From Eledone cirrhosa (lineage: Eukaryota), in the NCBI GenBank assembly GCA_964016885.1, contig OZ024758.1, forward strand, positions 21,762,001-21,826,000: a stretch of 64,000 nucleotides of DNA, given 5' to 3'. Both the position numbers and the translations under genes were made by a program. The notes below the pieces were generated by a model. That model saw only the letters and a program-made list of their open reading frames with translations, did not search any database and had not been told where the DNA came from. Below, one piece after another: positions 19,273-38,270 of the stretch. How positions within the stretch are numbered: position 1 is the stretch's first letter; every line of letters begins with the position of its first letter.

Positions 19273-20204
19273 TCAGGTTATAAATTGGGTGTTGAGCTCT
19301 AGTCTATTATTGATTGGTGGATGTGTTCTATCTATAATGAGTGCTTCCTTGATTCTAAGATTACCGAGGTTTCTTTCTTTAGTTTCTATCCTAACTGTTA
19401 TGTTTTTATCAGTGTTTTTGCATTTAACTAGGTGTTTCTTAAATGAGGAAGCGTTAGTATTGAGGTGTTCTTGTATTCTTATGTGGAGTGGTCTGGTGGT
19501 GCTACCTACGTAGAAGTTGTTGCATTTGTCACACTCTAGTCTGTAAACTACGTAAGCCTGGTGGCATAGGTCTGTGTCGTTGATGGGGCAGTTGGCTAGT
19601 CTGCAGCAGTTGTCATGTCTGGTGGAGTGTCTCTTAGCTAGCCGTCCACGCAAAGAAGGACCCGAATGGGCCAGTTGAATATCCAGACCTTCTCGTCTGA
19701 TGGCTCTGCGGATGGCTGTTGTTGTTTCTTCACTGAAGTGTGGGAGCTTCAGGAAGCAAGTGTTAGTGCCTCGGGTGTGGTGTCCTCTGTTCTTTCTGGC
19801 ACGGTTTGTGGTGGATGTCGTGTATCCGTTCAGTTTGAGTACTTCCAGGAAATGTGTGGTGTGTGTGTCTCGGTCTCTGGCGTCGGTGCATTTGTTCTTG
19901 ATACGTGCCAGTTCGTTCTTTATGTATCCGAACTTGGCACCGAGTGGGAGGGCCGATCTGAAATGTACGAACAGGTCCCTGCTGGCGGATTTTTTATAGA
20001 AGCAGGTGTGGATGTTGCCTTCCTCTGTTACCCTGAGTTGGAAGTCCAGCAGGGATAGGGATCCGCGGTCATCGGGGTGTTCTATGCTGAACTTTATACT
20101 GGCGTCCATGCTGGAGAATGTTGTGTATATTTTCTCTGCCTCTTCACGGGATGATGTAAGGATGAGTATGTCATCTACATATCGGGTGAAGAAGGCATGG
20201 GAAT
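19273..20204 (-). CDS. 5'-truncated Penelope ORF: RT C-terminal/thumb region + GIY-YIG endonuclease (open frame)
   Basis: RYVDDI, IKFSIEH, LSLLDFQL, Cys-rich linker CRLANCPINDTDLC, VVYRLECDKCNNFYVGSTTRPLHIRIQEH, KEALII, INNRLE. Confidence 0.9.
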
Positions 20205-22416
20205 ACCACCACCGCCGAGACTACGAGAAAAAACGCCTAACACAAAAATTTCTCAAACTCAGGACGGCCAACTGTCTTAACAACATCCCAACGCCAAACA
20301 CCAACAGAGGCGAACAATACGTTACCAACACCGAACCTAGCGGCACCCCGACCAACAACACACCTGACGCAAAACACCTCGTCACAGACTTGACAGGATC
20401 CCCTCTCCCGAGAGGAATTAGACCTCCTCAGCCTGGGTCCCAAGTTCATATTGAAACAGAGACTGGACGACAGACTATGGCTCGACATAGAAACGAATTT
20501 CTGTCGAGCTGCCTACCAACTGAAATGGATATCGACTCTCGACAACAACACCACGGAATCCACCACACCCAGATTCCCCGATATACCAACTAGATCGCCC
20601 ACTCTATCCACCGCCCGCCACCGCGAGCTGGAAGATAAACTCTCGAGACTAAAACATTCCGTATTTAACATCTTACGGAAACAGAAGAGATGGCCCCTAA
20701 CCTCTCCAGGACACAACAACTCGCCCTGAAGAACCTACGGAATAAGGAACTTATTTACTTACCATCCGACAAAGGTAAAGAGTTCTGCGTCATCTCTCAA
20801 GCCACATACAATAACCTAGCCTTCGAACACCTAAGCGACAGTGAACTGTACACAGTGATCCCGGACATGACCGCAGCCCAAATCGAAAAACAGACCAACT
20901 CCATTTGGTTCGATATCTGTAGGAGAAGACAACTCCCGAATAAAATTAAACTCAACTACACCACTAGAAATAGCAGACTGCCCACTTTCTACCACCTCAT
21001 CAAGACCCACAAGAATAGCACTAAGACGCATATAAGACCCATCGTCTCTAGCATAGAAGGACCCCTATACAAAAATTTCCTGGCTTCTCTCCCAGGTCCT
21101 CAAGCCTCTACTCTCCACCTTCCCCGGACATGTCAGTAGCTCCGACGAAGTTATACGTAGATTACACCAACTCCAGCCAGAACAACTTAAACTTAATAAA
21201 TACGCTTTTAGCCTCGACGTTGTCTCCCTCTACACTACAGTCCCCGCTCACCCAGCTGTCGATTTATTGACGGACTGCGTGGTCGCAGAGAACATCCACT
21301 GCTACGGCCTCCACCCGACGGACATACACCAACTTTTGTCCTTCACAGTAGACAACACGTACTTCACCTTCCACCACCACACATACAGACAGACAACAGG
21401 ATTACCCATGGGATCCAGCCTCTCTGGCCTGCTGGCCATCACTTACATGAACCAGCTAGAATGCCGAGCCCTCAACACCTGCCATTCCCATGCCTTCTTC
21501 ACCCGATATGTAGATGACATACTCATCCTTACATCATCCCGTGAAGAGGCAGAGAAAATATACACAACATTCTCCAGCATGGACGCCAGTATAAAAGTTC
21601 AGCATAGAACACCCCGATGACCGCGGATCCCTATCCCTGCTGGACTTCCAACTCAGGGTAACAGAGGAAGGCAACATCCACACCTGCTTCTATAAAAAAT
21701 CCGCCAGCAGGGACCTGTTCGTACATTTCAGATCGGCCCTCCCACTCGGTGCCAAGTTCGGATACATAAAGAACGAACTGGCACGTATCAAGAACAAATG
21801 CACCGACGCCAGAGACCGAGACACACACACACACACATTTCCTGGAAGTACTCAAACTGAACGGATACACGACATCCACCACAAACCGTGCCAGAAAGAA
21901 CAGAGGACACCACACCCGAGGCACTAACACTTGCTTCCTGAAGCTCCCACACTTCAGTGAAGAAACAACAACAGCCATCCGCAGAGCCATCAGACGAGAA
22001 GGTCTGGATATTCAACTGGCCCATTCGGGTCCTTCTTTGCGTGGACGGCTAGCTAAGAGACACTCCACCAGACATGACAACTGCTGCAGACTAGCCAACT
22101 GCCCCATCAACGACACAGACCTATGCCACCAGGCTTACGTAGTTTACAGACTAGAGTGTGACAAATGCAACAACTTCTACGTAGGTAGCACCACCAGACC
22201 ACTCCACATAAGAATAAAAGAACACCTCAATACTAACGCTTCCTCATTAAGAAACACCTAGTTAAATGCAAAAACACTGATAAAAACATAACAGTTAGGA
22301 TAGAAACTAAAGAAAGAAACCTCGGTAATCTTAGAATCAAGGAAGCACTCATTATAGATAGAACACATCCACCAATCAATAATAGACTAGAGCTCAACAC
22401 CCAATTTATAACCTGA
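20205..22416 (+). pseudogene. Penelope RT + GIY-YIG ORF, 5'-truncated, several frameshifts (some possibly sequencing errors)
   Basis: YLPSDKG, PTFYHLIKTHK, IRPIVS, FSLDVVSLYTTVP, YRQTTGLPMGSSLS, RYVDDI, VVY..YVGST spread across frames. Confidence 0.9.
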
Positions 22417-25649: not shown

Positions 25650-26060
25650 GAGTTTTATTGTAGTACAATAAAGCAATGCAGATATCGGATAAGAAGCACT
25701 CTACAGTTTGTGGGAGTGGAGTATACATAATATATAAGATCAAAAGATGGTTAAAGGAGTTCCATGTATTTTATTATGCGCATTTCAAAAACAAACATCA
25801 TCATGCAATAATATTTGTGTTTTCATCAGATAAAACAGGAGAACATGATATGAAGGCTAAAAAACACTTGTGGATAGTGCAGTGGATAGTGCAGTTGATT
25901 TAAAACTGCACTATCCACAAGTGTTTTTTAGCCTTCATATCATGTTCTCCTGTTTTATCTGATGAAAACACAAATATTATTGCATGATTATGTTTGTTTT
26001 TGAAATGCGCATAATAAAATACATGGAACTCCTTTAACCATCTTTTGATCTTATATTATA
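25650..26060. mobile_element. HHR hairpin element, family A, copy 2; HHRs at 25767-25837 (-) and 25951-26021 (+)
   Basis: TGTTTTAT-CTGATGA-long stem II-GAAA-TGCGCA-TA-ATAAAATA; left arm is the longer one here. Confidence 0.85.
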
Positions 26061-32216: not shown

Positions 32217-32304
<88 letters not shown>

Positions 32305-32347
32305 CAATAATATTAATAAATGGAAAATATCTATATAAAACCATATT

Positions 32348-32408
32348 TATTTTATTATACGTATTTCAAGGGTACTAATATTTTAGTACGCTTTCGTCAG
32401 ATAAAATA
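32348..32408 (-). ncRNA. Family B-like HHR
   Basis: TATTTTAT-CTGACGA-AAGCGTACTAA..TTAGTACCCTT-GAAA-TACGTA-TA-ATAAAATA; palindromic ATACGTAT. Confidence 0.85.
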
Positions 32409-32503
32409 TATATATATAACAACATACTGAATCTCCATCGTAACTACGACTGTTGAGAGCTTTCTCCTGTTTGCTTCTGTTTTTACCAAAACAATTACTT
32501 AGG

Positions 32504-32538
<35 letters not shown>

Positions 32539-32579
32539 CGATATTAAACAAATAGAAACTATATTTATAAAACCATATT

Positions 32580-32645
32580 TATTTCATTATACATATTTCA
32601 GGGATACCATATTAGAAATATGGCATGCCTTCTTCAGATAAAATA
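32580..32645 (-). ncRNA. Family B HHR
   Basis: TATTTTAT-CTGAAGA-AGGCATGCCATAT..ATATGGTATCCCT-GAAA-TATGTA-TA-ATGAAATA. Confidence 0.85.
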
Positions 32646-32699
32646 CAATATATAAGCAGTTTTATAAATAAATTTGACGTACATATATATATATATATA

Positions 32700-33420
32700 A
32701 TACAGATCGAAACTTAAGCTGATCAATAGCGAAACGCTATATACAGATCGAACCTTGAGATGATCAATAGCGAAACACGCGTCACCACTCAATAAGCGTA
32801 ATGAAGCAGACAGAAGTTTCACGCTGTTGACGATCATCAGAGCAACTTACTCCCCGCTTTCGCCGAAGATTATAGAAGCTGGATTCTTATAGAATTCCAG
32901 TAATAATCAGGAGCTGATTATACAGAGAGATTGCCAGTCCAGCAAAAATTAAGTATTAGCAATGGTGCTCTGAAATAGCGATGTATACATGAATGTATGT
33001 ATAGTATATTTGGCAATATACCGTATGTTTAATTATTAACATTTTGAACACCATACGCTATCAGTTTTAAAGCGGTGACTATGTCACTTCTTTTCTTCTA
33101 ATTTGTTGCTGGACATGCAATCGCTCTGTATAATCAGCTCCTGATTATTACTTGAATTCTATAAGAATCCAGCTTCTATATTCTTCGGCGAAAGCGAGGA
33201 GTACGTTGCGCTGATGATCGCCAACAGCGTGAAACAGACAGTTTGTTAGCTTCTCTCCCTTCTTTCGCCGAAGAAAAGAAGTGACATAGTCACTGCTTTA
33301 AAACTGATAGCGTATGGTCTTCCATTTTTTTTTTAATTAAGCATGCAGTATATTGCCAAATATACTATACATACATTCATATATAAATCGGTATTTCAGA
33401 ACAGCACCAATCCTAATACC
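32700..33420. mobile_element. Family C HHR element: permuted head-to-head pair
   Basis: + strand reads A(33098-)-HHR-B(-33418); - strand reads B(33097-32954)-A(32953-)-HHR; flanked by (TA)n. Confidence 0.75.
33183..33273 (+). ncRNA. Family C type I HHR with extended stem I
   Basis: CTGATGA at 33211, stem II CGC/GCG, GAAA at 33231, outer helix CTTCGGCGAAAG/CTTTCGCCGAAG (12 bp). Confidence 0.7.
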
Positions 33421-33426
33421 TATATA

Positions 33427-33465
<39 letters not shown>

Positions 33466-33572
33466 TCACTCTCACTAAGCGTAAGCGTGAAACTAATAAT
33501 ATTTGTAACATTTACTCCAGCTTCTGTCTGCTTTTTATTTTTGTTTTTTTTTTGTTTTCTGATTTTCCGAAC

Positions 33573-33610
<38 letters not shown>

Positions 33611-37546: not shown

Positions 37547-37574
37547 CTGATGAAGGGCTTATGCCCGAAACGTC
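37547..37574 (+). ncRNA. Minimal HHR core, family E (stem I lost)
   Basis: CTGATGA-A-GGGC-TTAT-GCCC-GAAA-CG-TC; palindromic ACGT. Confidence 0.7.
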
Positions 37575-37711
37575 ATCCCCCCCCCCCCCTCCCGCCTTCG
37601 TTAAGACGCTCTTCCTGCTATATCAAGCGTTAACCTAATATATACCTTCCCTATACTGTACCGGTTGTGTTGTTATTTCTGTTTACCTTTTACATACATA
37701 TATATATACAC

Positions 37712-38270
37712 TATTAATAAATGGAAACTATATTTATAAAACCATATTTATTTCATTATATATATTTCAAGGATACCAAGTTAAATCATGGTATGCCTTC
37801 ATCAGACAAAATACAATATATAACAGTTTTACTGTTATATATTGTATTTATTGTTTTACTGTTATATATTGTATTTTGTCTGATGAAGGCATACCATGAT
37901 TTAACTTGGTATCCTTGAAATATATATAATGAAAGAAATATGGTTTTATAAATATAGTTTCCATTTATTAATACTGTATATCTACTCCAAATATTTGTCG
38001 AGTGCTTTATATCAGTTATAATAATTGTTTCTACTTTAGGCACAAGGCCAGCAATAATTACAGTGCATTACTGGTACTTTATTTTATCGACCCCGTAAGG
38101 ATGAAAGGCAAAGTTAACCTCGGCGGGATTTGAACTCAGATCATAAAGGGAGGTAACTCTATGCTTCAAAGCATGGCGTCCGACCCTTACCGATACTGCC
38201 AATCCACCGCCCTATATCAGTTATAATAATATTTGCTTGTTGTATCCCAACAATTTAAATAGAACTTTTG
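37712..38270. mobile_element. HHR hairpin element, family B; HHRs at 37749-37813 (-) and 37872-37936 (+)
   Basis: Inverted arms ~37712-37827 and ~37858-37973; long right arm interrupted by a SINE; stem III ATATATAT. Confidence 0.85.
38026..38212 (-). mobile_element. Full-length main-family SINE with TSD
   Basis: TATATCAGTTATAATAAT at 38008-38025 and 38213-38230. Confidence 0.92.

Follow-up and report, generated by a model that had tools for sequence, protein, structure and literature searches.

A two-armed inverted insertion of a ~320-nt hammerhead repeat in Eledone cirrhosa, likely copied in trans by a Penelope-like element

The window (the whole stretch of 64,000 nt of Eledone cirrhosa DNA analysed here) contains a two-armed inverted insertion of a hammerhead ribozyme (HHR) repeat of about 320 nt, which was likely copied in trans by the reverse transcriptase (RT) and endonuclease of a Penelope-like element (PLE) from an RNA longer than one unit. 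We give this reading a probability of about 0.85. Judged from sequence, the family to which the insertion belongs is a non-autonomous, PLE-dependent non-LTR retrozyme, and neither an autonomous PLE nor the pseudo-LTR (pLTR) of one. The main evidence lies in the ends of the copies, which recur at two fixed sites and are paired, one of each, in most of the scorable inverted insertions.

Results

Structure of the insertion

The plus strand had been predicted to read A-HHR-B and the adjacent minus-strand copy B-A-HHR. Both orders were recovered by self-BLAST: the plus strand holds one full unit, and on the minus strand B was matched from 33097 to 32953 (86% identity to 33270-33422) and A-HHR from 32953 to 32816 (91-93% identity to 33099-33235), with B directly before A and the passage between them spanning 32959-32942. 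The minus-arm match reaches 32803 when the copy at 57152 is used for comparison. Coordinates are collected in Table 1. The predicted extent of the unit, 32700 to 33420, was retained for 32803-33419 and abandoned for 32700-32806, which belongs to another HHR-like repeat. The same-strand pair of HHRs is absent from this locus. In the putative priming region of the plus arm, a hairpin (33348-33365) is followed by an AC-rich loop, in which the "short" 3' site falls at about 33380, and the tail up to the "long" site at 33418-33419 measures about 39 nt, against 35 nt in the family. The window copy differs by 7.5% from the family column majority, the family median being 6.1% (188 segments).

Table 1. 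Features of the insertion and of related sequences in the window
Feature	Position	Strand	Remarks
Plus arm: whole unit (A, HHR, B, tail)	33098..33419	+	Ends at the "long" 3' site, followed by (TA)n
Inverted arm: B (33097-32953), B-A junction, A, damaged HHR (core 32840-32834)	32803..33097	-	
Fragment of a second HHR-like repeat family	32700..32806	+	Local 41-nt duplication
(TA)n target tract, left	32683..32699		
(TA)n target tract, right	33421..33463		
Second copy of the family in the window	57152..57411	+	Single-armed, 5'-truncated, long 3' end, core CTGATAA
Type I hammerhead with extended stem I	33181..33275	+	Fold and core letters
Putative reverse-transcription priming region	33348..33419	+	Role inferred from PMC11167929, as described there

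The 3' end of the inverted arm is atypical, lying a few bases beyond the cut site and at neither of the two fixed end sites. The arm and the neighbouring fragment share a 4-nt overlap, GAAG (32803-32806), and their join would be either a later deletion that fused two neighbours or the product of priming at microhomology. The repeat family of the fragment (L032-L040) has 1144 candidates in the genome, a very long helix II, inverted arms and apparently two 3' ends roughly 100 nt apart; it may be either a pLTR or another non-autonomous unit.

Other mobile sequences surround the insertion. A short 3' remnant resembling another PLE pLTR (33464-33572) lies directly behind the right TA tract. A broken PLE in inverted arrangement occupies about 19273-22261, with RT at 21057-21617 and GIY-YIG pieces on both strands, and an open frame of 879 aa (46917-49556) with RVT_1 and zf-RVT domains marks a non-LTR retrotransposon. 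More minimal-HHR-like motifs were seen at 2209-2873, 25829-25959, 27442, 32400, 32637, 37547-37880, 40464, 43208, 57992 and 59668, often as inverted pairs in TA tracts; the motif at 43208 matches the pLTR ribozyme of the Neptune-type family discussed below (L169).

A dispersed family with three subfamilies

The genome searched comprises 3.0 Gb in 1796 contigs; its size and its load of microsatellites are in keeping with octopus genomes. The family of the window unit, C1, has 3247 candidates genome-wide, 40 of which were scored. The B-A junction is not peculiar to the window: it occurs in 378 exact genomic copies (control 0), which rules out a local rearrangement as its origin and leaves standing the claim that depended on it. 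Together with a seamless spacing of 314-321 nt, this junction also bears out the template period of about 320 nt.

A sister subfamily, C2, is 75% identical to C1 and has 1962 candidates, with 148 exact copies of a 44-nt ribozyme stretch; its median distance from the majority is 1.4%, measured on 41 segments that were taken from the top hits and are therefore skewed towards young copies. A third subfamily is represented by one copy (L281:65-570), 79% identical to C1 and 84% to C2, with a U3-A8 core, a self-complementary stem II and a palindromic helix III; this copy is a long+short inverted pair whose plus arm begins within 3 nt of the cut site. Family variants and ends recur in three runs of assembled contigs, which derive from one sample of unrecorded type. 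The longest stop-free frame within C1 units is 52 aa (L020), and in the C2 array described below the frames measure 45-48 aa in five cases and 82 aa in one; on these frames the unit is non-coding.

The expectation of tandem arrays was borne out in the sister subfamily, with an array of 28 units, and only in short form in C1, where tandems reach at most 3.5 units (L075) and five exact two-junction matches were found. No long C1 array was seen in the genome assembly, and assemblies can collapse arrays. The C2 array (L226; G000:C14:23499007-23508211, hereafter the C14 array) holds 28 HHRs with a period of 320-321 nt, starts with a short inverted arm, ends at the long site and is built of higher-order repeats of 3, 6 and 12 units. 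Its origin as a rolling-circle product was considered and rejected, as its 12-unit blocks are identical and point to expansion at the DNA level. By its sequence the array is a retro-insertion turned minisatellite, and it is a candidate source of multimeric transcripts.

A type I hammerhead supported by covariation

The window contains three HHR cores, at 33211 (+), 32840 (-) and 57209 (+). In the plus-arm copy, the distal helix of stem I pairs 33181-33194 with 33262-33275, the core CTGATGA occupies 33211-33217, GAAAC and helix III lie at 33231-33247, and cleavage is predicted between 33247 and 33248. The extended stem I had been described as closed by a helix of 11-12 bp; the helix is indeed present in the plus-arm and 57181 (57152-57411) copies, and it measures 14 bp (fold z -4.5) and 13 bp (z -5.1), respectively. 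The minus arm lacks the 3' strand of this helix and gave no folding signal (z -0.4). All three window ribozymes carry changes by which they are probably impaired: G33210 breaks the first stem I pair of the plus-arm copy, a T follows the cut site in the minus-strand copy, and the CTGATAA core at 57209 sets C3 against A8.

No hammerhead match was obtained from Rfam at the gathering score over the whole window. At E<=10, the region 32300-33600 gave 11 matches, none of them a ribozyme and all of them hairpin or TA artefacts, and the sister subfamily C2 gave a weak Hammerhead_HH9 match (E 0.13). Rfam stayed below threshold; the hammerhead call rests on the core letters and on covariation. We aligned 40 copies, 39 of them distinct (25 C1 and 15 C2). 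In the HHR structure 95.6% of cells pair, compared to 38-58% in slid controls. Between the subfamilies, 10 of the 27 pairs changed on both sides (5 in distal stem I, 4 in stem II and 1 in the core), a count matched by 15 of 500 shuffles, to be read with the few evolutionary events that separate the subfamilies and with the fact that the structure was drawn from the same sequences. The core change swaps C3-G8 for U3-A8, a variant known from Schistosoma PLEs (PMC4209133), and further compensatory changes are contributed by the third subfamily. The main forms of all three subfamilies have a short, palindromic helix III, a hint at dimer-assisted cleavage (PMC4209133). The monomer from cut to cut measures 314-321 nt with a GC content of 33-37%, and three monomers folded as circles gave z values of -4.6, -5.2 and -4.7 against 60 shuffles. 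Structure and covariation thus support the assignment of the unit to the type I hammerheads, with a conserved core.

Two loci on contig C1 (L129 and L130, at 176.71 and 176.88 Mb) lack the HHR core through a shared deletion of about 62 nt, so that the ribozyme may be dispensable for copying; as the loci lie 170 kb apart, a segmental duplication is possible.

Two fixed 3' ends, paired in inverted insertions

Copies end mainly at two fixed sites, one 133 nt and the other 168 nt downstream of the cut, hence 35 nt apart. The short end running into TA occurs in 741 exact copies and the long end in 484, with none in either control. Loci not selected by their end supplied 131 arm ends: 60 at the short site, 49 at the long site, 5 within the tail and 17 at other places. 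A single internal fragment stops close to the ribozyme cut. Both ends could be scored in 47 of 69 inverted pairs (22 were unscorable), and 42 of the 47 combine a long with a short end, the others being short+short (4/47) or long+long (1/47) (binomial P 1e-8). The same combination was found in 21 of 25 pairs from loci not selected by end (P 4e-4). The script that assigns the pairs errs both ways: by eye, L190 is short+short, L013 is long+long with a deleted tail, L122 does not show a true end, and L078 and L079 end inside the tail. C2 has the same two ends, with 9 of 22 loci clearly long+short and the rest single-armed or with an atypical end. The short site coincides with an ACAUUC loop; between C1 and C2, the stem of this loop shows a paired change.

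The 5' ends, by contrast with these fixed sites, are random: one was observed at the cut site (2.6 expected) and one at the unit start (1.4 expected). Inverted 5'-truncated arms and partial tandems are present across loci. The target is a (TA)n microsatellite, and target duplications are therefore unreadable. The signature described for PLEs (10.1101/2021.04.23.441226) comprises partial tandems, an inverted truncated arm and, at one end only, a tail of 30-40 bp. According to PMC11167929, the RT has two internal start sites in an AC-rich stem-loop, and the stretch between them gives the PLE tail. The copy ends thus follow two sites, probably PLE-type priming sites, and not the ribozyme cut, which makes "retrozyme" and "PLE-dependent" two descriptions of one element.

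The template: circle or multimer

We analysed 57 end-anchored arms (60 minus 3 duplicates) with a mean length of about 225 nt, some lengths being too high where arm extension over-ran AT-rich flanks. The cut site was reached by 36 arms and read through in 35 of them. The template was hence no cleaved linear monomer, but either a circle formed by religation or a multimer left uncut. Subfamily alleles were discordant at 61 of 714 comparisons between tandem units (8.5%) and at 95 of 924 between inverted ones (10.3%), compared to 34.6% between loci; such alleles common to the units of one insertion fit a circle or a uniform multimer. At L020, two units differ at 2 of 267 sites and have 5 rare variants in common, and at L229 one private variant is present in all four blocks; both patterns are compatible with a circle. 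At L091 and L230, private variants of the inverted arm match the downstream unit(s) and are absent from the upstream unit, which would fit copies of a mixed multimer or later gene conversion. A post-insertion origin of identical units is possible at L212, L078 and the C14 array. Taken together, these within-locus variants do not appear decisive between circular and multimeric templates.

The family could spread solely via uncut read-through transcripts of tandem loci, the ribozyme being kept and no stable circle being formed; we put this at rather less than an even chance. It would account for the patterns at L091 and L230 and for the core-less variant at L129 and L130, and it agrees with two published observations: HHR mutants of the anole PLE insert normally, unprocessed RNA being the main in vitro substrate (as reported in PMC11167929), and 1 of 9 Xenopus retrozyme dimers was cleaved in vitro (according to 10.64898/2026.07.22.740005). 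However, three subfamilies retain a full canonical HHR through compensatory change, and the retrozymes of like build in coral, mussel and axolotl that are described in PMC7229834 yield circles. Moreover, the mean arm is shorter than one unit, and without long arrays as a supply a lineage that passes only through linear RNA should become ever shorter.

At the opposite extreme, towards which the original prediction leaned, every template would be a monomeric circle and the copying a rolling reverse transcription. The suggestion that tandem PLE copies derive from a circular template dates from 2014. As the exclusive route the circle seems doubtful to us: the seamless period of 314-321 nt with read-through of the cut site, the alleles shared by repeats within an insertion, the variants at L020 and L229 and the lack of a long C1 array seen to serve as a linear source all speak for it, but L091 and L230 look like mixed multimers, though later gene conversion could explain them, and identical units may post-date insertion (L212, L078, the C14 array). 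Whether or not the circle is the only template, we lean slightly towards its formation in vivo.

Search for a PLE partner

PLEs are abundant in this genome, with 10,596 GIY-YIG candidates. Their frames reach 1096 aa (those of 1096 and 938 aa are intact and of Neptune type) and combine RT and GIY-YIG with a CxxxxCxxC linker, which PMC8557442 describes as typical of Neptune and Nematis, and the elements have their own short-helix HHRs and TA-ending 3' ends. We found no homology to the unit, pLTRs and 3' ends included, in 80 PLE loci (30+20+30, from about 10,600 candidates), other than by independent insertion, and no match to it in the broken PLE of the window. Directly upstream of the unit, the 60 end-anchored loci share no non-unit sequence beyond simple repeats, one locus that is a duplicate, and a single pair whose flanks match over 73 nt. 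In L042-L068 and L250, which belong to an abundant autonomous PLE family, the core is likewise U3-A8 and stem II has the same letters as in C2, but wider homology to C2 was not found. One of its loci, L042, was rejected as a pLTR, as the inverted pair sits in a TA tract behind the PLE end, in the wrong geometry.

The attachment to a Penelope ORF that had been envisaged was not confirmed: the search gave one chimeric junction in 60 loci, which no other locus shared. At this locus (L169/L252; G000:C1:57041780-57043600) a decayed Neptune-type ORF immediately precedes the unit: the start of its GIY-YIG domain meets the unit's first base, with a 3-nt overlap. The PLE family concerned has its own, unrelated minimal-HHR pLTR, and 29 of 29 other copies lack the unit at that place. 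We rejected L169 as the parent PLE and regard it as a one-off chimera, the junction of which may be a template switch or an insertion with deletion.

These data bear on the reading that the copies are truncated pLTR ends of an autonomous PLE, which we consider improbable. Tail, inversion and TA targeting are those of PLEs, and L169 (1/60) has the decayed Neptune-type ORF next to the unit. However, the tail is followed 378 times by the unit's own start and by no ORF, the 60 end-anchored loci share no upstream sequence beyond the minor exceptions above, the L169 family has an unrelated pLTR and 29 further copies without the junction, and the autonomous families seen have short-helix HHRs. The truncated-pLTR reading is already largely refuted. 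Of the two identities first suggested, a retrozyme or a tandem-HHR pLTR, the non-coding tandem HHR unit is upheld, whereas a pLTR of an ORF-bearing PLE is unsupported. The remaining reading, in which the DNA was rearranged locally or the repeat is a DNA satellite whose hammerhead-like motif arose by chance, could point to the DNA-level expansion of the C14 array (3-, 6- and 12-unit repeats) and to the missing Rfam match in the window, but it is refuted by the junction count, the fixed 3' ends and the end pairing, and it is further opposed by the dispersed copies, the random 5' ends, the compensatory changes including that of the core pair, and the short inverted arm and long site that open and close the C14 array itself.

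Discussion

On this basis, we propose the following scenario for the PLE-dependent retrozyme. Tandem loci would be transcribed as multimers, which the ribozyme can cut to monomers of 314-321 nt that may circularise, and the template would be either an uncut multimer or a circle. A PLE protein, probably of Neptune type and probably a dimer, would nick both strands of a TA tract and prime two cDNAs within the RNA, one at the AC-rich loop and the other 35 nt further downstream; these would then be joined by their 5' ends. A more specific version, in which the genome encodes a circular ribozyme RNA and the two subunits of a PLE protein dimer copy it, each priming at a different fixed site, is a tentative proposal that we hold to be rather unlikely as a whole. 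If it is true, the 42 of 47 long+short pairs preserve in the genome a trace of coordinated double priming and show directly that animal retrozyme circles are mobilised by PLEs, and the young C2 subfamily is a ready substrate for reconstitution.

Which enzyme moves animal retrozymes was previously judged by co-occurrence and by similarity of sequence. In the present family, the PLE mechanism is seen in the insertion ends of three subfamilies, the copy ends ignoring the ribozyme cut, and the family offers a short, structured, ORF-free RNA with two mapped candidate priming sites for tests of PLE priming and template use. The advance is incremental, since the class, the tail and the PLE link are all already in print. 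No report of a cephalopod retrozyme was found among the publications listed by our literature searches; the family may already be catalogued in Repbase or Dfam. The giant squid genome paper, in its available text, only counts 235 hammerhead-1 hits.

The link between PLEs and retrozymes was proposed in 2020 and was argued for vertebrates in a 2026 preprint by Li, Clavereau and Pollet (10.64898/2026.07.22.740005). As presented there, retrozymes are PLE-dependent and most families have few repeats per locus, as is the case here. They argue from co-occurrence and from homology to pLTRs, the groups that they name include no mollusc, and the available text has no analysis of insertion ends; our argument is based on the anatomy of the insertions, and no pLTR homology was found.

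The unit resembles the animal non-LTR retrozymes, as described by Cervera and de la Pena in 2020 (PMC7229834), in being non-coding and within their size range of 150-450 bp, with GC below 50% (33-37% here), in its canonical type I HHR with a short palindromic helix III, in its tandems and thousands of copies and in its co-existence with PLEs; the base of its helix II carries a U.U, a feature likewise present in axolotl HHR_Amex2. Unlike the retrozymes of that account, it occurs mostly as dispersed partial tandems with inverted arms, with one long array, in C2, and it has fixed 3' ends of PLE type; target-site duplications, longer than 4 bp in animal retrozymes when present, are unreadable in its (TA)n targets.

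With the endonuclease-bearing (EN+) PLEs Neptune and Poseidon (PAc), as far as they are described in PMC11167929 and Craig et al. 2021, the family has in common a tail of 30-40 bp on one end, an inverted 5'-truncated arm, partial tandems and AT-rich or (TA)n targets, as well as reverse transcription starting at an AC-rich stem-loop with the HHR upstream of the start sites (PMC11167929). In contrast to these elements, the unit has no RT or GIY-YIG ORF, its period is 320 nt instead of about 3 kb, and its HHR has a full helix I instead of the minimal form. A further parallel is found in the non-autonomous Chlamys elements such as MRC1, which PMC8557442 presents as PLE passengers that form pLTRs and head-to-tail multicopy insertions. 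Unlike our unit, the Chlamys clade is described there as lacking canonical HHRs, and its passengers resemble their autonomous partner at the 3' end, whereas no such partner was found here; with them, the cephalopod family has in common multicopy insertion in the manner of a passenger of PLEs.
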